A DNA stretch of 64,000 nt from Candidatus Sulfopaludibacter sp. SbA3. GTDB taxonomy: Bacteria; Acidobacteriota; Vicinamibacteria; Vicinamibacterales; UBA2999. Each line of letters starts with the position of its first letter. Position 1 is the stretch's first letter. The DNA is taken from contig CAMDNQ010000016.1 of assembly GCA_945903265.1 (NCBI GenBank), positions 6,075-70,074 of the forward strand, given 5' to 3'. This document shows, one piece after another, positions 19,665 through 47,285 of the stretch. Below the pieces are notes generated by a model. It was not told the origin of the DNA, searched no databases, and saw only the letters and a list, made by a program, of their open reading frames with translations. A program made the position numbers and the translations under genes.

Positions 19665-21839
19665 CTAACGCGCGCGCAACAGCCGCAGCGCGTTCCCGAC
19701 CACAATCACCGACGCCCCCGTATCGGCCAGGACCGCCATCCAGAGCGTCGCGGTCCCGGCGACCGCCATCGCCAGGAACGCGGCTTTCAGCGCCAGGGAA
19801 ATGGCGACGTTCACCCTGACGTTCCACATCGTGGCGCGCGCCAGGCGGATGGCGTACGGCAGACGCAGTAGCTCGTCCGACATCAGCGCGACGTCGGCGG
19901 TTTCCAGCGCGGCATCCGATCCCGCGGCACCCATCGCGACGCCGACGTCGGCGGCGGCGAGCGCCGGCGCGTCATTGATGCCGTCGCCGACCATCAGCAC
20001 CGGGCCGCGCGCCTTCAAGGAGCGCACCAGCGCGTGCTTCTCCTCCGGCAGCAGCTCGCCGTGGTGTTCGTCCACCTGCAGCTCCCGCGCAACCCGCTCG
20101 GCGACGCGGCGATGATCCCCGGTCAGCATGACGACGTGACGGATACCCTGCTCGCGCAGCATGCCTATGGCTTCCCGCGCCGTGTCGCGCGCGCGGTCCT
20201 GCAGGAGAATGGCGCCGGCGAGACTCCCGTCAATCGATACGTACACCGTTGAGGCGTCCGAGGCGGCCACAGCACTTTCGCGCCAGGTCGCGACGACCGC
20301 CGCGGCGAGCGGACCCGACTGAAACAGCCGCTCGTTCCCCACGGCGACACGCACGCCGTCCACGTCTCCTTCGGCGCCCATGCCGGGCACGGCCTGGAAA
20401 CCCGCTGCCGACGGAATCGCGGACCCGCGCGCCTGCGCGGCAGCCACGATGGCGCGCGCGACCGGATGCTCGGATCGCGTTTCAATGGCGGCCGCGGCCC
20501 TCAGGACATCCGTGCCCGTCCGGCCGTCCATGGCGATGACGTCCACCACGGCCAGATTGCCGGTGGTCAACGTGCCGGTCTTGTCGAAGGCGGCCACGCG
20601 CACGGCCGCAAGCCGCTCGAGATACACCCCGCCCTTGATCAGTACGCCGTTGCGAGCCGCCGCGGACAATGCCGCCACGATCGAGACGGGCGTCGAAATC
20701 ACAAGCGCACACGGGCAGGAGATGACGAGCAGCACGAGCGCCCGATAGACCCACGTCGCCACGTCGCCACCGGCCAGTAGCGGGACGAGCGCAAGGGCCA
20801 TCGCGAGGAGCAGAACCGCGGGCGTGTAGATACGCGCGAACCGATCGACAAATGTCTGTACGGGCGCGCGGCTGGCCTGCGCGGTTTCGACGAGGTGAAT
20901 GACGCGTGCCAGGCGCGTATCGCGAACCAGTCGGGTCACGCGCACGTCGAGCGCTCCGCGCCCGTTGATGGTTCCGGCAAACACGGCGGCGTCCGGGCTC
21001 TTGTCGATCGGGAGCGATTCGCCGGTCAGCGGCGCCTCGTTGACGTCGCTGTGGCCGGCACTCACCACGCCGTCGAGCGGGATTTTTTCGCCGGGCCGGA
21101 CCAGCATGTCGTCCCCGATGCGAATGTCCTCGACGAGGACGCGCAGCTCGACGCCGTCCCGTCGCACGAGCGCATCTCTCGGCGAGAGCTCGATCAGCGC
21201 TCGGATCGCCTGCCGGGCCCGCTCCATGGTTCGCACTTCGAGCCACTGGGCGACGGCAAACAGGAGCACCACGCTGGCAGCTTCGAACCATTCGCCGAGC
21301 AGCAGGGCGCCGGCGACGGCGATGACCATCAGTGCATTGATGTCGAGCGTGAAGGACCTGACGGCCCGCACTGCCCGCCGCGCGGGGAACACCGCGCCGG
21401 CAATCGCCGCCGTCGTGAACACGATGGCCGCCATGTCCGGACGTCCAGCCGCCGACAGCACGAGCCCGGCGGCGGTGGCGATGGCGCAGCCAACCATGAG
21501 GCGCCAGCGCCACACGAGATCGGCGCCGGCCACAGCCGGTTCCTCATGCTCGAGCCACATCCGCATGCCGGTCTGGCCCACCGCGTCGACCATCGCCGTG
21601 GTCGTCAGTCTGGCCGCGTCGTACTTTACGTACAGGCGCTGGCCGAGCAGGTCGGCTGACATCGCCTCGAGCCCGGTCAGCGGCTTGAGGCGCCGCTCGA
21701 GGATGCGCACCTCCTCGTGGCAGTCCATCCCCTCCACGCGGAAAACGGCTTCCGCGTGAAGCTCGCAGGTCGCGCAGGGCGCCGGCTGGAGTGAAGCCAC
21801 GGTGCCTCCAGCGTACCGGCGGCCGGCCGCTGGCGGCAA
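19665..21839 (-). CDS. heavy-metal translocating P1B-type ATPase (Zn/Cd/Pb-like CPC type)
   Basis: Contains DKTGTLT, SCPCALVISTP, GDGINDAP and an N-terminal HMA-like domain. The exact start is uncertain. Confidence 0.9.
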   Translation of the reverse strand: MPPAAGRRYAGGTVASLQPAPCATCELHAEAVFRVEGMDCHEEVRILERRLKPLTGLEAMSADLLGQRLYVKYDAARLTTTAMVDAVGQTGMRMWLEHEEPAVAGADLVWRWRLMVGCAIATAAGLVLSAAGRPDMAAIVFTTAAIAGAVFPARRAVRAVRSFTLDINALMVIAVAGALLLGEWFEAASVVLLFAVAQWLEVRTMERARQAIRALIELSPRDALVRRDGVELRVLVEDIRIGDDMLVRPGEKIPLDGVVSAGHSDVNEAPLTGESLPIDKSPDAAVFAGTINGRGALDVRVTRLVRDTRLARVIHLVETAQASRAPVQTFVDRFARIYTPAVLLLAMALALVPLLAGGDVATWVYRALVLLVISCPCALVISTPVSIVAALSAAARNGVLIKGGVYLERLAAVRVAAFDKTGTLTTGNLAVVDVIAMDGRTGTDVLRAAAAIETRSEHPVARAIVAAAQARGSAIPSAAGFQAVPGMGAEGDVDGVRVAVGNERLFQSGPLAAAVVATWRESAVAASDASTVYVSIDGSLAGAILLQDRARDTAREAIGMLREQGIRHVVMLTGDHRRVAERVARELQVDEHHGELLPEEKHALVRSLKARGPVLMVGDGINDAPALAAADVGVAMGAAGSDAALETADVALMSDELLRLPYAIRLARATMWNVRVNVAISLALKAAFLAMAVAGTATLWMAVLADTGASVIVVGNALRLLRAR

Positions 21840-34677: not shown

Positions 34678-35203
34678 CGTCATTGATCGCGAGCTTCTGC
34701 GCGACGTCCATTCCGGAAATGACCTGACCGAACACCGTGAACTTGCCGTCGAGGCTCGGCTGCGGAGTCAGCGTGATGTACATCTGACTGTCGCCGGTGC
34801 GCGGATCGTTGAGATTGGCGAGCGCGACCGCGCCGAGACGATGCCGCCTCTTCGGGTTGACTTCCGACACGCCGACCGGCCGTCCGCTTCCATACGATCC
34901 CCAGCGATCGCGCTTGGTCATGTCCCGGGTCTGCGGGTCGCCGAACTGCACGACGAACCCCTTCACGACACGATGGACGCGGTGGCCGTTGTAGAAGTTC
35001 CGCTTCACGAGGGCGAGGATGTGCTCGACCGTTTTCGGCGCTTCGACCGGGTAGGTTTCGATCTCGATCATGCCCTTCGCGGTCTCGACGAGCAGCACCG
35101 GCCCGGCGCCGGCCGATTTCTGTCCGCCGGCCTGGGCCGCGAGATCGCCGGCCAGCGGCGCGATCACGATGAGCGCCAGCAACGCTGTGAGCATCCGAGT
35201 CAT
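34649..35203 (-). CDS. cyclophilin-type peptidyl-prolyl cis-trans isomerase, secreted
   Basis: FHRVVKGFVVQFGDP and ...FGQVISGMDV motifs plus a signal peptide. ATGA overlap with the nth stop. Confidence 0.88.
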   Translation of the reverse strand: MTRMLTALLALIVIAPLAGDLAAQAGGQKSAGAGPVLLVETAKGMIEIETYPVEAPKTVEHILALVKRNFYNGHRVHRVVKGFVVQFGDPQTRDMTKRDRWGSYGSGRPVGVSEVNPKRRHRLGAVALANLNDPRTGDSQMYITLTPQPSLDGKFTVFGQVISGMDVAQKLAINDVIRRITVKP

Positions 35204-35871
35204 CTCGTCCTCCGTTGAACACCCATTCTTGGACATTCATCATGGATCGCGCAATCGCCGCAGCGCGGTGACAGCGGCCGGCAGACGTTCTGCCCCCACG
35301 TCACGAGGTAGAGGTTGATGTACGGCCACCACCGCTTATCCGTGGCCCGATACAACGCCCCCTCCGTCTCGTCTGGTGTCAGCGTCTTCACCCACCCGAG
35401 GCGGTTCGAAATGCGGTGGACGTGGGTATCCACGCAGATGTTCTGGACACTCTTGAAGCCGAGGATCAGCACCAGGTTCGCCGTCTTGCGCCCCACACCC
35501 GGCAGCATGAGCAACTCGTCCATCGTCGACGGCACTTTCCCGGCGAACCTGGTGACGAGCATCTCGCAGCACGCTTTCACGTGCCGCGCCTTGTTCCTGT
35601 AGAAGCTCACCGGGTAGATCAGCTTCTCGATCTCCTTCACCGGCAGCTTCGCCATCGACTGCGGCGTTCGCGCGCGACGGAACAGGCGTGTCGATGCAGC
35701 GTGGGTCGTCGCATCCTGCGTCCGTGCAGACAGGATCGTGGCAATCAGGATCTGAAAAGGATCCTCGGCGTGTTCGTCAGAAATTTTTTCGACCGCCGGA
35801 AGCTCGAGGCCGGTAATGGCCCTGGCAAGGCCGCGCATGACGCGCTCGACCGTGCGTGGACGCGGCTTCAT
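35200..35871 (-). CDS. nth: endonuclease III
   Basis: HhH-GPD region (LPGVGRKTANLVL), DTHV.R...RLG, and a C-terminal 4Fe-4S loop C......C..C.....C. Confidence 0.92.
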   Translation of the reverse strand: MKPRPRTVERVMRGLARAITGLELPAVEKISDEHAEDPFQILIATILSARTQDATTHAASTRLFRRARTPQSMAKLPVKEIEKLIYPVSFYRNKARHVKACCEMLVTRFAGKVPSTMDELLMLPGVGRKTANLVLILGFKSVQNICVDTHVHRISNRLGWVKTLTPDETEGALYRATDKRWWPYINLYLVTWGQNVCRPLSPRCGDCAIHDECPRMGVQRRTR

Positions 35872-35874
35872 CCG

Positions 35875-36822
35875 CTACGGCACTGGCGTCAGGGGCGGCT
35901 GTCCCGTCACGACGGCTATGGCGTTGCGGGCCGCCAAGTCCGCCATGGCTGTCCGCGTCTCCATCGTCGCGCTGCCCAGATGCGGCGCCAGCACGACGTT
36001 CTCCATCGTCATCAACTCGGCGTTGATCTCGGGCTCCCGCTCGTACACGTCCAGCGCCGCGCCGGCAATGAGATGGTTCTTGAGGGCCCACGCGAGCGCC
36101 GCTTCGTCGACCACCGGCCCGCGCGTCGTGTTGATCAGAAAAGCCGTTCGCTTCATTCGGGCCAGCTCCGGCTGTCCGATGAGGTGCTTTGTCTCCGGGG
36201 TGAGCGGCACGTGCAGCGAGACGACATCGGACGTCGACAGGAGCCGATCCAGCGGCATGCCGCCCGACCGTGTCGTGTGCACGACCGTCATCCCGAATGC
36301 CTCCGCGCGCGTGCCAACCGCGCGGCCGATGCGGCCGGGGCCGACGATGCCCAGCTGTCGCCCGCCAAGCTGCATCCCGAGCAGTTGATCCAGCGCCCAG
36401 CCTTTCCAGGCGCCCCGCCGGACCATGCGCTCCCCTTCGCCGAGGCGCCGCGTGACCGCGAGGATCAGCGCCATCGTGAAGTCGGCCGTGGCGTCGGTCA
36501 GGACATCAGGGGTATTGGTCACGATGATCCCGCGGGCGCGCGCCGCCGCGACGTCGATGTTGTTGTAGCCGACGCCCACATTCGCAATGACCCGAAGATC
36601 CGTCGCGGCGTCAATTACGGCGCGATCGATGGCTTCCGTGACGGTCGACACGAGCGCCTGCTTGCCGGCAATGCGCGCGACAAGCTCGTCGTGGGGCATC
36701 GCACCTTCGCCGTCGAAGCGGTCGACATCGCACGCCGCGTCGAGCCTCGTCATCACGGACGAAGGGAGCTTGCGCGTCAGCAGGAGGGAGGGTTTAGTGT
36801 CCGTACGACTTGCAGTAGCCAC
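35875..36822 (-). CDS. D-isomer-specific 2-hydroxyacid dehydrogenase (glyoxylate/hydroxypyruvate reductase-like)
   Basis: GIVGPGRIGRAV NAD motif and a catalytic R/E/H arrangement (..NT.RG..VDE.AL, ..PH.GSAT). The GTG start lies 29 nt inside the upstream small gene. Confidence 0.85.
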   Translation of the reverse strand: MATASRTDTKPSLLLTRKLPSSVMTRLDAACDVDRFDGEGAMPHDELVARIAGKQALVSTVTEAIDRAVIDAATDLRVIANVGVGYNNIDVAAARARGIIVTNTPDVLTDATADFTMALILAVTRRLGEGERMVRRGAWKGWALDQLLGMQLGGRQLGIVGPGRIGRAVGTRAEAFGMTVVHTTRSGGMPLDRLLSTSDVVSLHVPLTPETKHLIGQPELARMKRTAFLINTTRGPVVDEAALAWALKNHLIAGAALDVYEREPEINAELMTMENVVLAPHLGSATMETRTAMADLAARNAIAVVTGQPPLTPVP

Positions 36823-37018
36823 AGTGATTGCACATGACGGCCGGCTCGATCACGCAGGGACCGTCCTCCGCCGCGCCGTCGGTCAGCGTGGAGAACATGC
36901 CGTGGCTGGCGTGCAGGCGCAGTGACGCCACCGGCGGGTGGACGTGGGCGCGTGTCGAAGGGCCCATCTGCCTGGCGATGGCGTCGCGCACGATCGCCCG
37001 CAGCTGATCGTCGTTCAT
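36794..37018 (-). CDS. 74-aa Cys-rich protein with an amphipathic N-terminal helix (BMC-associated)
   Basis: Sequence is MNDDQLRAIVRDAIARQM...CVIEPAVMCNHCGYCKSYGH. ATGA overlap with the BMC-P stop, and its 3' end overlaps the dehydrogenase start. Confidence 0.6.
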   Translation of the reverse strand: MNDDQLRAIVRDAIARQMGPSTRAHVHPPVASLRLHASHGMFSTLTDGAAEDGPCVIEPAVMCNHCGYCKSYGH

Positions 37019-37287
37019 TCGCTGATGTCCACGGTGTCGATGATGCCCACGACAGCCGCATCCACCGGCGCAAACTTCCGGCCCAGTGCCTCGCCCGCCG
37101 CGCGGCCTTCCATGACGACCAGCACCTTTTCATCGACACCCGCGCCGAGCGCGTCGACGGCGAGGAGCGCCGGTCCGCGCGGCTTGTCGTCCATCGTGAG
37201 CGGCTGCACCAGGAGCAGTTTGGCGCCCTCGAACTTTCTGTGCTTCTGGGTGGCGACGACCGTGCCGATCACGCGGGCGATCTGCAT
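37015..37287 (-). CDS. BMC-P pentameric vertex protein (EutN/CcmL family), copy 1
   Basis: MQIARVIGTVVATQK...LVAVDALGAG..E.VLV..G, the PF03319-type pattern. Confidence 0.9.
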   Translation of the reverse strand: MQIARVIGTVVATQKHRKFEGAKLLLVQPLTMDDKPRGPALLAVDALGAGVDEKVLVVMEGRAAGEALGRKFAPVDAAVVGIIDTVDISE

Positions 37288-37553
37288 CAACCGAGATCCC
37301 AGCGATCGACGATACCGACGATGCCGGCGTCCGTCGGGACCTCTGTCGGGTAGAACGGAAAGCTGGCTTCCTTGCCTCGCACGAAAAACACGGTCTCGCC
37401 GATCCCCGCGCCGGCCGAATCGACGGCCACGAGTGTGCGTCCCGCCGGCGATCCGTCCGCCGTGATCGGCTGCAGGACGAGCAGCTTCATGCCATGGAGA
37501 TTCTCATCCTTGCGCGTGGCAATGACGTCGCCGATGACTCTGGCGAGCTGCAT
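37287..37553 (-). CDS. BMC-P pentameric vertex protein (EutN/CcmL family), copy 2
   Basis: MQLARVIGDVIATRKDENLHGMKLLVLQP...VAVDSAGAG.GE.V. The internal ATG at 37553 lies 1 nt after the copy-3 stop. Confidence 0.88.
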   Translation of the reverse strand: MQLARVIGDVIATRKDENLHGMKLLVLQPITADGSPAGRTLVAVDSAGAGIGETVFFVRGKEASFPFYPTEVPTDAGIVGIVDRWDLG

Positions 37554-37554
37554 G

Positions 37555-37830
37555 TCAGTTGCCGCCGGGCACGTCGATCGTGTCGATGATGCCGACGATC
37601 GCGGCATCCACGGGACAGTCCTTGAGGCCGGCCGCCATACGCGCCGAGCTGCCGCTGACGATGAGCACCGTCTCGCCGACGCCGGCGTCGACGGTGTCAA
37701 TGGCGACGAGATAGTTGCCTTCGCTTTTGCCGTGGGGGTCGATCGGACGGGCCACCATCAGCTTGCTGCTGAGGAGCCGTGGATCCTTGCGGGTAGCGAC
37801 AACGGTCCCGACGATACGGGCCAGGATCAT
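37555..37830 (-). CDS. BMC-P pentameric vertex protein (EutN/CcmL family), copy 3
   Basis: MILARIVGTVVATRKDPRL...VAIDTVDAGVGETVLIV. Confidence 0.9.
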   Translation of the reverse strand: MILARIVGTVVATRKDPRLLSSKLMVARPIDPHGKSEGNYLVAIDTVDAGVGETVLIVSGSSARMAAGLKDCPVDAAIVGIIDTIDVPGGN

Positions 37831-37848: not shown

Positions 37849-38148
37849 TTAGGCCTTGGCCGCGCCGGACGAGGCCTTGCCGATGGGGAGCGCGTCTTCG
37901 AGGTTCGCGTGCGGCCGCGGGATGACGTGCACCGACACGAGCTCACCGACCCGGCGGGCAGCGGCAGCGCCGGCATCAGTGGCGGCCTTGACGGCCGCGA
38001 CGTCGCCGCGGACGATCGCGGTGACGTACCCGGCGCCAATCTTTTCCCAGCCGATCAGCGTGACCTTCGCGGCTTTGACCATGGCATCGGCCGCCTCAAT
38101 CATGGCGACCAGCCCTTTGGTCTCGATCATTCCCAGCGCCTCTCCCAT
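37849..38148 (-). CDS. BMC-H hexameric shell protein (PduA/EutM-like, PF00936)
   Basis: [28 protein letters not shown]......[21 protein letters not shown], the canonical BMC domain. Confidence 0.93.
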
Positions 38149-38161
38149 TCGGTCCTCGCTT

Positions 38162-39007
38162 CTAATCCTTCAGGGTCTTGACGGCATCCGCGATGAGCGC
38201 CGTCAGTTCGGCGTATGTTAGCCGAATTTCGCCGTCCCTGCTCGCCCGCGCGAGGGCGTCATCCGGCACCAGCCGGCGAGCGGACTCTGGCGATTCGAGC
38301 ACCTGGCACAGCACTTCATCGCCCGTCACGTCGTTGGGATCGGCGCAGAGCGGCGCCGGCGACGGAATCCCGTAGAAACCGCGGAGGCCCTGGAGCCGCT
38401 CGACTTCATCGCGCGAAATCAGATTCTCGCGGCCAAGCAGGCGCGCCACGAGGCTGATGTTCGCAAAGTGCTCGATGGTTTCCATCTTGTAATACGCGCT
38501 CAGCACGTCCGTCCCGCACGTCACGGCGCCATGGTTCGCGAGCAGCATTCCGTCGTGTGCCTTGATGTACTTCCGCACGGCGTCGGGCAGCTCCCTCGTC
38601 GAGGGCGTTCCGTATTCCGCGATGGGGATGCTGCCGAGCGTCGTAATGACTTCCGCGAGTACGGCTCTCGTCAGCGGAATGCCCGCAACCGCAAAGCCCG
38701 TCGCGACAGGGGGATGCGCGTGGACGACCGCGTTCACGTCCGGCCGGTTGCGATAGATCTCGAGATGCATCGGAAGCTCGGTCGACGGATCGCGATCGCC
38801 GGCGATCTTGTTGCCGTCGAAGTCGACGATCACCATCATGTCGGGCGTCATGAAACCCTTCGAGACGCTCTTCGGTGTGGTGACCAGCCGTTTCTCGTCG
38901 AGCCGTGCGCTGATGTTGCCGTCGTTCGAGGCGATGAACGAGCGGGCGTACAGACGGCGGCCGGCCTCGACGATATCGGCGCGGATCTGTTCCTCGACTC
39001 GGGTCAT
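38162..39007 (-). CDS. class II aldolase/adducin-family enzyme with a C-terminal encapsulation-peptide-like extension
   Basis: Aldolase_II motifs ([21 protein letters not shown]). A roughly 65-aa tail ends in the amphipathic [25 protein letters not shown] overlap with the YHS gene stop. Confidence 0.88.
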
Positions 39008-39255
39008 GGCTGTGCGAACTTGGCCTTGCACGCTTCGGAGCAGAAGTAGTGCGTCGTGCCCGCGGCGGTCGCCGACAGTGCTGCGCGGGCGGGCACGTAG
39101 GTCCCGCAGACGGGATCACGCACGAGCTTGACGGCCGGAGTGGGACCTCCGCTTTCGCGCGGCGATCGGGCGGCTTCGATCACTGAATCCACCAATCGCC
39201 AGAACATCCGCGCGATGATGATGAGCAGGATGGCGAGAAGGATGAACCTGATCAT
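39004..39255 (-). CDS. membrane-anchored YHS/TRASH-domain protein
   Basis: N-terminal TM segment (FILLAILLIIIARMFW), then VCGTYV......HYFCSEACK.KF, a YHS-type metal-binding motif. Confidence 0.7.
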   Translation of the reverse strand: MIRFILLAILLIIIARMFWRLVDSVIEAARSPRESGGPTPAVKLVRDPVCGTYVPARAALSATAAGTTHYFCSEACKAKFAQP

Positions 39256-39267
39256 CGACTCGCGCCG

Positions 39268-39897
39268 TTAACTTCCCGGAGTCGCGGCGCCGGCGGCGCC
39301 GCCTGTCGAATGGCCGGCCGCAGCGATGCCTTCAAGGGCCTTCTGGGCCGCCTGTCCCTCTGGACTGCCCGGTGCAAGCGCCACGACCTGCTTCCAGGCC
39401 GTTTCCGCCCCCGCCAGATCGCGCTTGCCGAACGCCAGCACGATGCCCTGGTTGAGGAAGGTCTTCGTGTGCTTCGGGTCAATCTTCAGCGAGCTGTCGA
39501 ACTGCGCGAGCGCACGGTCGGTCTGGCCGGTGTAGTAGTAGCTGATACCGAGATCCGTGCTCGCATCCGCGTTCTTCGGATCGAGCCGGACGCCCTCCTC
39601 GTACCACTTGATGGCGTCCGGATAGCGCTCGGCGTCGAAGTACACATTTCCGAGCTGCACGGCCGCGCCCGCGTTCGTCGGATCGCTGGTGATGACGGTC
39701 GTGAGCGCCTGCACGCGAGCTTCGTCGAGCGGAGGTGTTGCCTGCTGCTGGCCGGCGCCCTGCGGCGGCGGGGCGGCCGCGGCCTGGGGGACGGGGACGG
39801 CAGGCTGGTTCTCGGCCTGCTGGATACCGATCACCCATCCGAGGATGATGCCAAAGCACATGCCGGCGACCGCGAACACGATGGATTCAGCTTTCAT
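39268..39897 (-). CDS. tetratricopeptide repeat protein with an N-terminal TM anchor
   Basis: TM anchor, an Ala/Pro/Gln linker, then three to four TPR-like units (LGNVYFDAERYPDAIKWYEEGVRLDP...). Confidence 0.75.
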   Translation of the reverse strand: MKAESIVFAVAGMCFGIILGWVIGIQQAENQPAVPVPQAAAAPPPQGAGQQQATPPLDEARVQALTTVITSDPTNAGAAVQLGNVYFDAERYPDAIKWYEEGVRLDPKNADASTDLGISYYYTGQTDRALAQFDSSLKIDPKHTKTFLNQGIVLAFGKRDLAGAETAWKQVVALAPGSPEGQAAQKALEGIAAAGHSTGGAAGAATPGS

Positions 39898-40700: not shown

Positions 40701-41435
40701 TCACGACAGTACGGCCAGATAGTTCCTGACGCTCTGTTCAAGGCCCACGAACAGCGCCTCGCTGATCAGCGCATGGCCGATCGAGACTTCATCCAGATGA
40801 GGCAATGTGCGGAAGAGCACGAGGTTCTCGAGGTCGAGATCGTGTCCCGCGTTGATGCCCACGCCGAGTGAATGCGCCATCTCCGCAGCCGCCGCATAGG
40901 TGTCGAACGACTGGCGGGCGCTGGCGGCGTCCCGTTCCCACGCACGGGCGAACGGCTCCGTATACAGCTCGACCCGGTCCGCGCCGACCGCCGCCGCCCA
41001 TCGGATTGCCTGTTCGTCCGGATCCACGAACACGCTGACGCGCACGCCCGCCGCCTTGAGACGGGCAACGACACGCTCAATCTCTGCGCGCGGCGTCCCT
41101 GGCGCCCAGCCGGCCTGACTGGTAATCTCGCCGGGCTTCACCGGAACGAGCGTGCATTGATCGGGGCGAACGTCTGCGACGAGGTCGAGCAGATCGGGCC
41201 GCGGATCGCCTTCGATGTTGTATTCGACACGCCCCTTCAGAGGCTCGAGATACGCGGCGATCTCGCGAACGTCGCGCGCGGTGATGTGCCTGGCGTCGGC
41301 ACGCGGATGCACGGTAATCCCTGGAGCGCCGGTCTCGACACAGACGCGCACGGCGTCCATGACCGACGGGTTCGCGCCGCCGCGCGAGTTGCGCACGGTC
41401 GCAACTTTATTCACGTTGACGGAGAGCCTGATCAC
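40701..41435 (-). CDS. pdxJ: pyridoxine 5'-phosphate synthase
   Basis: LSVNVNKVATVRN.RG and ITVHPR.D.RHI motifs. The GTG start overlaps the glmM stop (GTGA). The upstream part of the 475-aa track ORF is discarded. Confidence 0.9.
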   Translation of the reverse strand: MIRLSVNVNKVATVRNSRGGANPSVMDAVRVCVETGAPGITVHPRADARHITARDVREIAAYLEPLKGRVEYNIEGDPRPDLLDLVADVRPDQCTLVPVKPGEITSQAGWAPGTPRAEIERVVARLKAAGVRVSVFVDPDEQAIRWAAAVGADRVELYTEPFARAWERDAASARQSFDTYAAAAEMAHSLGVGINAGHDLDLENLVLFRTLPHLDEVSIGHALISEALFVGLEQSVRNYLAVLS

Positions 41436-42766
41436 CGGACGTGTTCGCGCACCGCCTGCGCGATGTCCTGTGCCCATTGGCGGATCTCGGTCTCGTTCTT
41501 GCCCTCGAGCATGATCCGCAGCAGCGGCTCCGTGCCGGAGTACCGGACCAGCAGCCGGCCATCGCCGGCCAGCCGGCGCTCCACCGACTCCATCACCGCG
41601 GCCACGGCCGGAACCGTTCGCAGATCGGCCTTGCGAGCCACGCGCACGTTGAGCAGCACCTGCGGGTACGTCGTGATGTCCGAGGCCAGATCGGCGAGCG
41701 TGCGCCCGGTCGCGGCAACGGTTCTCAGGACGTTCAGCGCGGTGGCGAGGCCATCCCCGGTGAACAGGTGGTCGGAGAAGATGATGTGTCCCGATTGTTC
41801 GCCGCCCAGCGCAAGGTCGCGGCTGACCATCTCTTCCATGACGTACTTGTCGCCAACCGCGCACCGGACCATGTCGATGCCCGTATCCCGAAGGGCGATC
41901 TCCAGGCCGATATTGCTCATGACGGTGGCGACGATCGCGTTGCCCTTCAGGCGGCCTTCCGCTTTCATCTGCTTGCCGCACATCAGCATCACGGCGTCGC
42001 CATCGACGATCGTGCCGCCGGCGTCCACGAAGATCGCGCGATCGCCATCGCCGTCGAAGGCCACGCCGAGGGGAAATCCTCCGGCCACAACCGTTCGCGC
42101 GAGCAGATCCGGCGCCGTCGACCCGCATTGCAGATTGATGTTCCGGCCGTCCGGTTCACACCCGATGCAGGTCACCTCGAACCCGAGCTCCCTGAACACC
42201 CGCGGCGCCACGCTCGTCGTGGCTCCGTTGCCGCAATCGATCGCAATCCGGCGCGCCGGGCCGGACGCGGCCGGCAGAATCCGCAGCAGATGCGCGAGGT
42301 ACTCGCCGCGGTAGTCGATCTGCTCGATCGGCAGCGACGCCGTGTCGACGCTCGTCTGCCACGACGTGTCGAACACGATCGCCTCGATCTGATCCTCCAG
42401 CGTCTCGGTGAACTTTGCTCCGCTGCCCGAAAACACCTTGATGCCGTTGTCCTCGAACGGGTTGTGGGATGCAGAAATAACGACCCCGGCGGTGTAGCCC
42501 ATGCGGGGCGTGAGAAACGCCACCGCGGGAGTCGGTATGACGCCGGCGCTGACAAGCTCGCCTCCGGCGCTTCGGATCCCCTCCGCAAGCGCGCGCTCAA
42601 TCCAGGGGCCTGATTCCCGCGTGTCCCGGCCGGACAGGAAGCGCGTCGGCTTCCCGCCGCCCAGCGCGCGCGCGAGGGCGGCCCCAAGCCGCTGGATGGT
42701 CGGAGGATCGAGTGGATATTGACCGGCCTTACCACGCACCCCGTCGGTGCCGAACAGTTGTCCCAT
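41432..42766 (-). CDS. glmM: phosphoglucosamine mutase
   Basis: ISASHNPFEDNGIK active-site Ser loop and GVAFDGDGDR metal loop. Confidence 0.93.
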   Translation of the reverse strand: MGQLFGTDGVRGKAGQYPLDPPTIQRLGAALARALGGGKPTRFLSGRDTRESGPWIERALAEGIRSAGGELVSAGVIPTPAVAFLTPRMGYTAGVVISASHNPFEDNGIKVFSGSGAKFTETLEDQIEAIVFDTSWQTSVDTASLPIEQIDYRGEYLAHLLRILPAASGPARRIAIDCGNGATTSVAPRVFRELGFEVTCIGCEPDGRNINLQCGSTAPDLLARTVVAGGFPLGVAFDGDGDRAIFVDAGGTIVDGDAVMLMCGKQMKAEGRLKGNAIVATVMSNIGLEIALRDTGIDMVRCAVGDKYVMEEMVSRDLALGGEQSGHIIFSDHLFTGDGLATALNVLRTVAATGRTLADLASDITTYPQVLLNVRVARKADLRTVPAVAAVMESVERRLAGDGRLLVRYSGTEPLLRIMLEGKNETEIRQWAQDIAQAVREHVR

Positions 42767-42793
42767 GGATTTTTGAACTCGTTCCCTACTGGG

Positions 42794-43690
42794 TCATCGA
42801 ACCTGGACGCGCACGATTGGCGGCTCGACGCTCACGACACCGACTCGGGCCGGCGGCGTGATGTGCACAGGAAGCTGGAACGTCCCAGCCTGGAGACCTT
42901 CGGTATCAATCGTCGCCTCGTAATCCTCGGCGCGCGACGACCGCAGCTCGCGCGGACCTCGAACAAACACGGTGACTGTCGAAGGCGTGATCTGCACCGC
43001 TCCGGTCTTCGCGTTCACGCCGATGCCGGTGATCGCCCACTCCGCCGGCGCCGGCCCGATCGTGATCGTCACCCGGGCGCTGCCGGGAGACACAAGACGG
43101 ATCGACGGATCGGCGACACCCATGTTGACACTTTCGACGATCGTCGAGCCCGCTTCCGTGATCGTGACCGGCTCGGTGATCGCCTCGGTTAGGCGCATCA
43201 TGGCGCTGGCCGGTCCGATGACTTCGACCGTCGATGGATCCGCCGACACGGTGCCAACGACGAACCCGTCAAGCGGTTCGCCATCGAGCTCGGGCACGAC
43301 GGGCACGACTTTCATGGCCGACGGTTCGAACACCATCGAGACGTTCGATGGGGCGATCTGGACGACTTCGATTCCGAAGGGCGCGCGCACATCGGAGCCG
43401 GTGAGATTGAACAGCCGCCGGCCGGGCCGGGCGCCTCGCAAATCCAGCACCGCGATCAGCTCACCCGCGGCAACCCGGCTGAGCGCCCCTGAAGAACCGC
43501 GGACCCGGACGTCCACGAGATCCGGCGTATCGCCCACCAGTTCGAGCTCCGCGGGGAGATTGGTGAACTCGAGCGGAATCCGGAGCGCCCGCTCGACAAT
43601 CTGTTCCCCGGAGACAAGGAGCCAGATCAGCGACGCCAGCACGATCGACAGGAGCTTGAGGCCGATGTGGCGGAATCCCGGATATGGCAT
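42794..43690 (-). CDS. cdaR: YbbR-domain protein, CdaA regulator
   Basis: N-terminal TM segment plus repeated YbbR-like beta modules. Conserved cdaA-cdaR-glmM order. Confidence 0.75.
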   Translation of the reverse strand: MPYPGFRHIGLKLLSIVLASLIWLLVSGEQIVERALRIPLEFTNLPAELELVGDTPDLVDVRVRGSSGALSRVAAGELIAVLDLRGARPGRRLFNLTGSDVRAPFGIEVVQIAPSNVSMVFEPSAMKVVPVVPELDGEPLDGFVVGTVSADPSTVEVIGPASAMMRLTEAITEPVTITEAGSTIVESVNMGVADPSIRLVSPGSARVTITIGPAPAEWAITGIGVNAKTGAVQITPSTVTVFVRGPRELRSSRAEDYEATIDTEGLQAGTFQLPVHITPPARVGVVSVEPPIVRVQVR

Positions 43691-44508
43691 CAGGCCAGCG
43701 AGCCGGTTGTTTCGGCGCGGAAGATGCGCGGCCGGCGGCGGCCCAGCAACGTGCGGAGCTCCGTACGCAGCGCGTCGGGCGAGAGGCCCCGTTCAATCTT
43801 GCCGTCGCGGACGAGCGAGATGCTGCCGGTCTCTTCCGACACGACCACGGCTATGGCGTCGTTCTCCTCGGTGAGGCCGAGCGCCGCGCGGTGCCTCGTC
43901 CCGAATTCGCGGCCCAGCCGCGGGTTCACCGAGAGCGGGAGGAAACAGGCCGCCGCCGCGACCCGGTCGCCCTGAATGATCGCGGCGCCGTCGTGAAGCG
44001 GCGATCCAGGGTGGAAGATGCTCGCCATCAGATCGTAGGTGACCATGGCGTCGAGCGGAATGCCGCCCTCGATGTAGTTCCGCAGGCCGATCTGCCGTTC
44101 CAGCACGAACAACGCCCCCGTGCGCCGGGCGGCCAGGTTGGAGGCCGTCGCCACGAGCTCCTCGATCGTTTCATCGGCGCTCTGCGCCCGCTCGAAGTAG
44201 CGGAAGAAGGGGGCGCGGCCGAAGTGCGCGAGCGCGCGGCGGATGTCGGACTGGAACAGCACGATGATCGCAAAGACGACGTACCCGGCGAGGTTGCGAA
44301 TGACCCAGTTCACCGTCTCGAGCTGCAGCCACTGCGAGAGGAAAAACAGCCCGATCAGGAAGCCGCCGCTCAGCGCCATCTGCACGGCGCGCGTGCCCCG
44401 GATCAGGAGCAGCAGTTCGTACACCAGGATCGACACCAGCGCGATGTCGAGCAGGTCCCACCATGCGATCGTCGGCCGCCGGAGAAGGTCCGTGAGCCAG
44501 GTCAGCAA
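43690..44508 (-). CDS. cdaA: diadenylate cyclase
   Basis: Three N-terminal TM segments and a DAC domain (DGAAII.GDR, RHRAALG.TE..DA..VVVSEETG.IS). Confidence 0.9.
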   Translation of the reverse strand: MLTWLTDLLRRPTIAWWDLLDIALVSILVYELLLLIRGTRAVQMALSGGFLIGLFFLSQWLQLETVNWVIRNLAGYVVFAIIVLFQSDIRRALAHFGRAPFFRYFERAQSADETIEELVATASNLAARRTGALFVLERQIGLRNYIEGGIPLDAMVTYDLMASIFHPGSPLHDGAAIIQGDRVAAAACFLPLSVNPRLGREFGTRHRAALGLTEENDAIAVVVSEETGSISLVRDGKIERGLSPDALRTELRTLLGRRRPRIFRAETTGSLA

Positions 44509-44511
44509 GTT

Positions 44512-45354
44512 TCACGCATGATAGCGCCGAATCTCCTCGGCGACCCGAACGACCTGCGCCATCTCGCGGACGGCATGGACGCGCACGATGTGCGCGCCGC
44601 CCAGGACGGCGGCGGTGACCGCGGCTGCCGTGGCCCAGTCGCGTTCCGACGCGGCGACCGTCCCGCCCAGCGGCTTGGCGAGAAACGACTTCCGCGACGG
44701 GCCGATCAGAATCGGACAACCGAGCTCGGTGAAGGCGTCGAGCCGCGCGAGCGCTTCGTAGCTGTGGCGCGCCTCCTTCGCGAATCCCAGACCGGGATCG
44801 ACGATGATGCGGTCCGCGGAGATGCCCGCGGCCGTCGCGAAGGCGATGCTCTCACGCAGCTCGTCGAGCACTTCGGCCACGACGTCGTGATAGGTCGCCT
44901 GCGCGTACATGTCGTGCGATCGCCCCCGGGTATGCATCAGAACGATGGCCGCGCGACGCGACGCGACGATCCCCGCCAGCGCCGGATCGTACCGAAGGCC
45001 GCTGACGTCGTTGACGAGAACCGCGCCCGCGTCCAGCGCGGCCTCGGCCGTGCCCGCCTTGTAGGTGTCCACGGAGATTGGGACCCGCACCTGCGACACA
45101 AGGCCCGCGATCACCGGAACGACGCGCCGCCGTTCCTCCTCGTCGTCCACCTGTGCCGCCCCCGGCCGTGTCGATTCACCTCCGACATCGAGCAGGTCGG
45201 CGCCTTCGTCGACCATGCGCACGCCCGCGGCAATGGCCTGCGCCGGATCGAGCAGCCGGCCGCCGTCTGAGAAGGAATCGGGAGTGGCGTTGATGACGCC
45301 CATGACCAGGACGCGGTCGCCGAGGGTAAGGCTGCCGCCGGCCGCAAGCGGCAC
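44512..45354 (-). CDS. folP: dihydropteroate synthase
   Basis: MGVINATPDSFSDGG and DVGGESTRPG motifs. Confidence 0.92.
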   Translation of the reverse strand: MPLAAGGSLTLGDRVLVMGVINATPDSFSDGGRLLDPAQAIAAGVRMVDEGADLLDVGGESTRPGAAQVDDEEERRRVVPVIAGLVSQVRVPISVDTYKAGTAEAALDAGAVLVNDVSGLRYDPALAGIVASRRAAIVLMHTRGRSHDMYAQATYHDVVAEVLDELRESIAFATAAGISADRIIVDPGLGFAKEARHSYEALARLDAFTELGCPILIGPSRKSFLAKPLGGTVAASERDWATAAAVTAAVLGGAHIVRVHAVREMAQVVRVAEEIRRYHA

Positions 45355-45380
45355 GGTGAAGCGGCGGCGGGGATCCAGGA

Positions 45381-47285
<1,905 letters not shown>

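Follow-up and report, generated by a model that had tools for sequence, protein, structure and literature searches.

The ACI type of bacterial microcompartment (BMC) was defined in the catalogue of Sutter et al. 2021 (PMC8217296; Nat Commun 12:3809). In its Supplementary Data 2, the ACI main locus comprises an aldolase with a C-terminal encapsulation peptide (EP), a hydroxyacid dehydrogenase, and three proteins without homologues (PMC8217296). The small protein described there has approximately 80 residues, an N-terminal EP, conserved Cys in its C-terminal part, and no known homologues, and the catalogue points to a possible importance of metal binding in loci of this type (PMC8217296). ACI occurs in Acidobacteria, mainly subdivisions 4 and 6, with an aldehyde dehydrogenase (AldDh) encoded at a satellite locus, and PduS/PduT pairs are occasionally found at satellite loci in ACI genomes (PMC8217296). 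Here, we analyzed a stretch of 64,000 nucleotides from Candidatus Sulfopaludibacter sp. SbA3 (Acidobacteriota, Vicinamibacterales; contig CAMDNQ010000016.1, positions 6,075 to 70,074; hereafter the window), in which a 74-residue, Cys-rich protein is encoded at 36794..37018 on the minus strand, between three BMC-P shell genes and a dehydrogenase gene.

Cys-rich modules have been described in further BMC types. The ACI AldDh carries a domain of ~50 residues behind its EP, and both it and the ACI aldolase have their nearest counterparts in MIC3 (PMC8217296). MIC3, found in Planctomycetes, has no EPs and combines an aldolase with a BMC-P triplet, while its AldDh extends through a linker of up to 120 residues into a C-terminal domain of ~40 residues with four conserved Cys (PMC8217296). 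MIC6 has a 4xCys extension, and MUF2, a type with a class II aldolase and a BMC-P triplet, has a six-Cys EP protein (PMC8217296). The MIC3, MIC6, and MUF2 modules, considered here from their description only, resemble the small protein in being small Cys-rich domains on flexible linkers or EPs. Unlike the MIC3 module, which is fused to AldDh in a system without EPs, the ACI protein is free-standing and carries an EP.

The window holds the gene set of an ACI main locus. Pfam identified a class II aldolase (pfam00596), which carries a C-terminal EP, and gave matches for all five of BMC-H, the three BMC-P, and the dehydrogenase, and relatives of the locus are almost all labeled Vicinamibacterales or Acidobacteriota. 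These matches also confirmed the position of the small gene between the BMC-P genes and the dehydrogenase, as an earlier note made from the letters of this DNA alone had read it. For synteny, 81 related loci with flanks of ±10 kb were compared (subsets of 80 or 77 in some counts), and the order TPR protein, YHS protein, aldolase, BMC-H, three BMC-P, small protein, dehydrogenase, endonuclease III recurred in ~60 of the 81, as well as in a lower-GC member from a marine metagenome. No AldDh was found among the scanned large ORFs of the window, nor was one recovered within these flanks by tblastn with a PduP sequence as the query; a main locus without AldDh agrees with the placement of this enzyme at a satellite locus. 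Because its gene content matches that of ACI in Sutter et al. 2021, we assign the locus to this type.

The small protein is the ACI protein of the catalogue and so was already known, the earlier note having found it again from raw sequence. At 74 residues, with an N-terminal EP and C-terminal Cys, it fits the published description of ~80 aa in locus type, size, EP, and Cys-rich C terminus; it differs in that four Cys are invariant here versus three in the catalogue. New in the present analysis are a near-universal C-terminal Gly-His, an H-x-S-H patch, a structure model, and the distribution of the family. No later paper (post-2021) characterizing the protein was found, in a literature coverage that was incomplete. 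We consider its identity and architecture to be established with high confidence.

The Small ORF Is a Conserved Gene of ACI Loci

The translation of the ORF at 36794..37018 (minus strand, ATG start) is MNDDQLRAIVRDAIARQMGPSTRAHVHPPVASLRLHASHGMFSTLTDGAAEDGPCVIEPAVMCNHCGYCKSYGH. It contains the motif C55-x7-C63-x2-C66-x2-C69, exactly as first read from the sequence, and lies in a GC-rich window with many chance ORFs on either strand. Among 5.8 billion proteins, a search recovered 475 homologous clusters at E<=0.01. Among the matches listed, 120 of these 475 clusters, homologue lengths ranged from 71 to 80 aa and all 120 had exactly four Cys with identical spacing, a pattern that was likewise invariant in 73 diverse representatives. 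A filter-free search with a hidden Markov model (HMM) against 1.84 billion representatives returned 271 clusters at 50% identity. The 150 best of these were all small (49-183 aa), the longer members of the set being long linkers, upstream mis-starts, or chimeric short contigs, and no fusion of the tail to an enzyme was found among the same 150. Pfam gave no family for the small protein at E<=0.01, and NCBIfam gave only a chance-level match ('protease inhibitor', E=0.027, 14.6 bits versus a cut-off of 292).

Relatives of the small gene were present in 257 species genomes in a scan of one genome per species, with labels that are nearly all Vicinamibacterales or Acidobacteriota. In addition, a degenerate DNA scan for I-E-P-x-V-x-C-x-x-C-G-[YF]-C over 185,579 species genomes gave at least 120 matches, 119 of which, among those listed, were ordinary ACI small genes; in the single match from Planctomycetes (L117), the motif is interrupted by a stop codon.

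For the last 23 codons, 78 distinct DNA versions were compared; entropy was 0.37, 0.31, and 1.07 at the first, second, and third codon position, respectively, and codons varied synonymously at all of the invariant residues (C, I, E, P, C, C, G, Y, C, G, H). Since entropy is concentrated at the third position and the invariant residues vary synonymously, the gene encodes a translated and constrained protein. The ORF is thus a genuine gene under purifying selection, which, together with its presence in 257 species, excludes the reading of it as a spurious ORF. That it is really translated, which had been argued from its overlaps with both neighbors, is borne out by this codon-level selection and the 475 clusters, and conservation of both the ORF and its four Cys holds in syntenic loci.

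Several metagenome-assembled genomes (MAGs) that carry the small gene are labeled Acidimicrobiia (L010, L019, L081, L096, L098, L114), Bifidobacteriaceae (L027, L150), or Solibacteraceae (L097, L153, L161). The flanks of L010, L019, L027, and L081 each contain a Vicinamibacterales-type operon, and the labels are probably binning or annotation errors rather than occurrence outside the group. The high GC content also gives rise to long antisense ORFs that are not genes; one of 473 aa (35416-36837, plus strand), for example, faces both the dehydrogenase and the small gene.

An N-Terminal Helix of the EP Type and a Variable Linker

The EPs of metabolosome cargo such as PduP, PduD, and EutC consist of an amphipathic helix of 15-20 residues and a flexible linker. 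In the small protein, residues 3-18 (36965..37012, minus strand; DDQLRAIVRDAIARQM) form the predicted counterpart, modeled as a helix (3-17 or 3-18) at a confidence score (pLDDT) of ~90 in both AlphaFold (AF2) runs, with a conserved hydrophobic stripe (L6-I9-V10-A13-I14-M18). Its consensus, M-t-e-x-E-L-R-a-L-V-R-x-a-I, aligns with that of the aldolase EP, L-T-Y-x-E-L-t-A-L-I-e-d-A-v, and comparison of the helix profile with the profile of the aldolase C-terminal EP by hhalign gave P=3.5e-5 over 14 columns with 43% identity. Judged by these profiles, the small protein and the aldolase bear the same kind of putative targeting helix, and the suspicion that the N terminus is EP-like has therefore gained support from both model and alignment.

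Residues 19-35 (36914..36964, minus strand) form a poorly conserved, flexible linker of low pLDDT. Across the family, this linker spans 11-75 residues and is composed of 19% Pro, 17% Ala, 10% Ser, 10% Gly, and 3.6% His. The description 'His/Pro-rich' given in the earlier note suits the window sequence, while the family as a whole is Pro/Ala/Ser/Gly-rich and poor in His. A terminal helix of EP length thus precedes a poorly conserved flexible segment, and the protein shares with metabolosome EPs (PduP, PduD, EutC) the terminal helix (16 residues here), the variable linker, the BMC locus, and the profile match to the aldolase EP; it differs from them in that the putative cargo comprises only ~35-40 residues rather than an enzyme. 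Similar logic is seen in CcmN (ApN), the beta-carboxysome shell adaptor, another small non-enzymatic protein whose EP is joined to a partner-binding module by a linker, although CcmN has no sequence relationship to the small protein and bears its EP at the opposite end.

The linker leads into an H-x-S-H-G-hydrophobic patch (HASHGMF; residues 36-42; 36893..36913, minus strand), delimited by conservation and by AF2 pairing. H36, S38, and H39 are invariant among close relatives, and 216 of 263 members of the family have H-x-S-H; H36, like H65 in the tail, is not universal across the wider family.

A C-Terminal Module with Four Invariant Cys

The Cys4 module extends from residue 52 to the C terminus at residue 74 (DGPC-x-IEP-x-V-x-C-x-H-C-G-Y-C-x-S-x-G-H; 36797..36865, minus strand), and its family form is D-G-P-C-x-I-E-P-x-V-x-C-x-H-C-G-[YF]-C-x-S-x-G-H. 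C55, E58, V61, C63, C66, C69, and G73 are invariant in the 73 diverse sequences, with I57, P59, H65, G67, and H74 conserved in >=90% of them. The protein stops directly after G73-H74, five residues beyond C69, and this terminal Gly-His is near-universal. By conservation, the four Cys appear as the core of the module, with the terminal His next in rank.

When AF2 was supplied with a diverse alignment, residues 51-70 were modeled at pLDDT 83-87, with a short helix at 68-70 and bridges from residue 41 to residues 54, 62, and 71. With residue 41 bridged to the tail in this model, the Cys tail and the H-x-S-H patch seem to form a single compact unit of ~35-40 residues.

A profile built from 50 diverse tails and searched against PDB sequences found only two matches of any weight, both medium-chain dehydrogenases (MDR): 5vm2_A at positions 89-101 (E=6e-4) and 1e3j_A at positions 90-103 (E=9e-3). 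The aligned stretch reads I/V-E-P-G-V-P-C-x-x-C-x-[YF]-C and covers residues 89-103 of the MDR proteins, the shared pattern being I/V-E-P-x-V-x-C-x-x-C-x-[YF]-C. C63, C66, and C69 of the small protein fall on the CxxCxxC cysteines of this stretch, which we take to be zinc ligands of the MDR structural-zinc lobe (C-x2-C-x2-C-x7-C). Three of the four Cys align; the fourth lies seven residues downstream in the MDR lobe and seven residues upstream in the small protein, which has neither the C-x2-C-x2-C-x7-C order nor an ADH_N/GroES-like domain around it. The similarity is at the level of a motif and may be convergent. We therefore treat the match as a lead for a tetrahedral Cys4 site rather than as homology.

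Other known Cys-rich folds fit less well. Rubredoxins and zinc ribbons have two C-x2-C knuckles and a pair of beta-hairpins, as compared with the single C-x2-C-G knuckle here, which is extended to C-x2-C-x2-C. When the 50 isolated tails were searched against Pfam at E<=10, only scattered chance matches appeared (Herpes_UL49_1 in 3, Fer4_2 in 1). Metal binding by the Cys4 module seems likely.

Conserved Coupling to the Third BMC-P Gene

The small gene always stands immediately after the BMC-P triplet in related loci. In the window, its ATG (37018-37016) shares three bases with the third BMC-P gene, BMC-P3 (37015-37290, minus strand; Pfam PF03319, 2.4e-30), whose TGA lies at 37017-37015. The ATGA overlap that had been pointed out from the sequence is therefore real, and it is not particular to this genome, since a 4-nt start/stop overlap occurs in 52 of 80 loci and the start lies within 10 nt of the BMC-P3 stop in 77 of 80. 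Translational coupling to BMC-P3 is conserved. Because the small gene starts on the BMC-P3 stop, output of the small protein should track that of the vertex protein (tens of copies per shell).

In two genomes (L128 and L065, the latter identical to L185), no stop separates BMC-P3 from the small protein and the two share a reading frame; in two others (L060, identical to L166, and L090), the junction is frameshifted. These cases could be true fusions or could reflect indel or assembly errors in MAGs, and we give them little weight.

Proposed Role and Alternative Explanations

We propose that the small protein is an accessory protein of the ACI-type metabolosome in the Acidobacteriota order Vicinamibacterales, built from three parts. 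The N-terminal EP, of the same sequence type as that of the aldolase, would bring it to the cargo/shell assembly inside the lumen. From this helix, a disordered Pro/Ala-rich tether, variable in length, would lead to a module of ~35-40 residues (H-x-S-H plus C-x7-C-x2-C-x2-C...G-H-COOH), which is probably too small to fold alone and would take up its fold around a single metal ion bound by the four invariant Cys. We favor a tetrahedral, structural Zn(Cys)4-type site over an iron-sulfur (Fe-S) center; the terminal His may be an additional or alternative ligand. Produced at about the level of the vertex protein through the stop/start overlap with BMC-P3, the protein would act not as an enzyme but as a docking or accessory module, present in low copy and tethered by its EP. 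We assign this zinc-docking or accessory-module reading, which is tentative, a rough probability of 0.35-0.45.

Several observations tell against this proposal. The tail was modeled at pLDDT <50 in the first AF2 run, for which the alignment was shallow, and Foldseek returned zero matches in the PDB for the small-protein model. The match to the MDR lobe covers only 13-14 Cys-rich residues, so its E-value may flatter, the Cys order is reversed (C-x7-C-x2-C-x2-C vs C-x2-C-x2-C-x7-C), and the Pfam ADH_N family matched neither the small protein nor any of the 50 tails. The Eisenberg hydrophobic moment of the N-terminal helix (0.25) is not above that of shuffled sequences (mean 0.31), because three Arg flank its hydrophobic stripe. 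Distance-matrix correlation picks out no partner for the small protein, with values of 0.52 for BMC-P3, 0.52 for the aldolase, 0.49 for the Nth control, 0.48 for BMC-P2, and 0.44 for the dehydrogenase. A C-x2-C-G-x-C core with a remote upstream Cys also resembles short [4Fe-4S] peptides (ferredoxin maquettes), and zinc and Fe-S are indistinguishable from the sequence alone. Finally, the occasional PduS/PduT pairs of ACI genomes (PMC8217296) leave room for electron transfer.

The alternative that survives best, although we judge it unlikely, is a luminal electron carrier, which the earlier note had suggested along with a metal carrier and in which the four Cys would hold a [4Fe-4S] cluster or a rubredoxin-like Fe center and the EP would tether an electron shuttle, for example for cofactor recycling. 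The ferredoxin-like core with its remote Cys would suit such a role, as would the PduS/PduT pairs and the Cys-rich extensions of MIC3, MIC6, and MUF2 recorded in the catalogue (PMC8217296). So, too, would the absence from 13 of 77 loci of an adjacent dehydrogenase, which elsewhere would recycle NAD+. However, no Fe-S family was significant among the Pfam matches, the nearest being one of the 50 tails with a weak match to Fer4_2 (E=0.099), and the ferredoxin pattern C-x2-C-x2-C-x3-C-P is absent, as no Cys-Pro follows the third Cys. In the window, the shell proteins have no pore Cys, with zero Cys in BMC-H, BMC-P2, and BMC-P3 and a single one in BMC-P1 (DCPVDAAIVG) that is unlike a pore residue, and no obvious partner oxidoreductase, flavoprotein, or Fe-S shell protein was seen in the conserved operon (±10 kb, ~80 loci). 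Cultured Vicinamibacteria are aerobes, in which an Fe-S cluster on a solvent-exposed tail of ~20 residues would be expected to be oxygen-labile. A redox role is disfavored because an Fe-S match, pore Cys, and an obvious redox partner gene in the conserved operon are all missing and the lineage is aerobic.

A metal chaperone or buffer, binding Zn, Fe, or Cu reversibly for supply to the class II aldolase or another cargo, is distinctly improbable. The aldolase keeps its class II metal-ligand motifs as read (VVHAHPP, LANHGAV), and a relay could perhaps involve the YHS/TRASH-like protein encoded directly upstream of it, whose C-x20-C-x3-C arrangement is kept in 75 of 77 loci. The H-x-S-H patch and terminal His of the small protein would add potential ligands, and the catalogue too suggests a metal theme (PMC8217296). 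Against this, the residues that would not be ligands (I57, E58, P59, V61, G67, Y68, G73) are extremely conserved, a pattern more in keeping with a fixed fold or interface than with a labile carrier, and the linkage of the YHS gene to the BMC genes may reflect conserved housekeeping synteny. To our knowledge, class II aldolases need no chaperone.

Doubtful to a slightly greater degree is a dedicated adaptor that takes the EP-less D-2-hydroxyacid dehydrogenase into the shell, the knuckle binding the enzyme and the EP binding the shell, as in CcmN. The dehydrogenase (35875-36822, minus strand; Pfam PF02826/PF00389), which is glyoxylate-reductase-like and lacks an EP, indeed has no terminal extension, as its Pfam domains cover residues 14-314 of 315, and it is the next gene in most loci. 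Its start codon is uncertain; the NCBIfam glyoxylate reductase model matched at 2.7e-97, below the curated cut-off. An overlap of 29 nt with the small gene is possible in the lineage of the window but hangs on the GTG at 36822, which owes its existence solely to the TGT codon of Cys66. Only five loci, the window included, depend on a GTG start inside the small gene, while in 58 loci a canonical dehydrogenase start lies at or after the stop of the small ORF. Moreover, the adjacent dehydrogenase is absent in 13 of 77 loci, where every invariant tail residue is kept, and the distance correlation with the dehydrogenase (0.44) is below those with BMC-P3, the aldolase, and the Nth control. The link between the small gene and the dehydrogenase is loose and the 29-nt overlap is peculiar to the lineage of the window, and a dedicated dehydrogenase adaptor is disfavored for this reason. 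Of the stoichiometric tie to both neighbors suggested earlier, tight gene coupling is conserved for the upstream BMC-P gene (52 of 80 loci) but not for the dehydrogenase.

In the lineage of the window, no canonical start for the dehydrogenase lies between the stop of the small gene and KPSLLLTRKLP, the conserved first strand of the enzyme; its one in-frame start is the GTG from the Cys66 TGT codon (36794-36822, minus strand). In L003, L019, and L025, there is no canonical in-frame dehydrogenase start at all, which suggests a non-canonical start or reinitiation. The loci without an adjacent dehydrogenase are L009, L027, L035, L040, L053, L058, L059, L063, L070, L075, and L077, together with L042 and L061, in which a dehydrogenase lies ~3.5 kb away; endonuclease III follows directly in most of them. 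An ACI variant without the dehydrogenase would need another route for NAD+ recycling.

The reading as a precursor of a ribosomally synthesized and modified peptide (RiPP; a leader plus a Cys-modified core) or as a spurious ORF, which a short ORF with a helical N terminus and a Cys-rich C-terminal end in GC-rich DNA with many chance ORFs might invite, has a negligible probability and was rejected. A spurious ORF is excluded by the codon-level selection and the 257 species, and against a RiPP precursor, the genes conserved around the small gene encode shell proteins, aldolase, and dehydrogenase, with no radical-SAM, YcaO, LanM, or peptidase gene among them; queE, ~3 kb away in the window, is outside the conserved neighborhood.

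The docking or accessory-module reading has a more speculative extension, which we regard as a long shot: the Cys4 knuckle may represent a so far unrecognized kind of microcompartment anchor that needs no EP and shares ancestry with the four-Cys domain of the MIC3 AldDh. The small protein would then be a two-headed tether, with the EP engaging the cargo condensate and the metal knuckle engaging the shell, most plausibly through the translationally coupled BMC-P vertex protein. If so, vertex closure would be linked to cargo loading. Homology of the ACI tail to the MIC3 domain would make the Cys4 knuckle a recurrent tethered module and possibly an EP-independent anchor.

Neighboring Genes

All further genes of the operon are on the minus strand. 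The signature enzyme, the class II aldolase (38162-39031; Pfam PF00596, 1e-49), carries its C-terminal EP in the last 22 residues (38165-38230), which are kept in related loci. It is followed by the BMC-H shell hexamer protein (37849-38148; Pfam PF00936, 1.7e-30), the first BMC-P (EutN/CcmL) of the triplet (37555-37830; Pfam PF03319, 5.9e-32), and the second BMC-P (37287-37553; likely start MQLARVIG; PF03319, 2.7e-28, at residues 50-132 of the longest ORF). Downstream of the dehydrogenase lies endonuclease III (nth; 35200-35871). No evident phosphotransacylase or alcohol dehydrogenase was found at the locus, and a scan of the locus for promoters and terminators was uninformative.

Directly upstream of the aldolase, a small, membrane-anchored YHS-domain protein is encoded at 39004-39255 (Pfam PF04945, 6.4e-10; also supported by synteny). 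Its membrane helix is N-terminal, it weakly matches the PP0621 family, and in the window its ORF extends over the longest-ORF start of the aldolase. The motif KLVRDPVCGT[YF]V...THYFCSE.C, which contains the C-x20-C-x3-C pattern kept in related loci, makes it the second small Cys-motif protein of the operon. A TPR protein with an N-terminal hydrophobic helix (39268-39897) heads the same gene string in ~75 of 81 related loci and could be either a member of the microcompartment operon or part of the upstream housekeeping block.

The BMC operon is embedded in a housekeeping block of conserved order (40701-47285 and 35200-35871, both on the minus strand), with ftsH, folP, cdaA, ybbR, glmM, and pdxJ upstream and nth downstream, as read by comparison with locus L001. 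It looks like an old, vertically inherited insertion into this block. A P-type ATPase with a heavy-metal-associated domain, a metal transporter, is encoded at 19665-21839 on the minus strand, ~15 kb from the operon.

Implications

Only Acidobacteria, a phylum dominant in soils, have ACI microcompartments, and each conserved accessory gene is a clue to the function of these organelles. The 74-residue protein is among the most conserved parts of the ACI locus, its last 22 residues being almost frozen across 257 species, and its gene stays with the shell genes even where the adjacent dehydrogenase is missing. Though not a discovery, the protein remains a worthwhile experimental target. A natural, minimal combination of an EP and a tiny putative metal module could aid the engineering of cargo or cofactors into synthetic shells. 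For the ACI microcompartment itself, the identity of the metal and of the partner would tell whether it relies on electrons moved within the lumen, on the delivery of metal, or on an additional tether for assembly.

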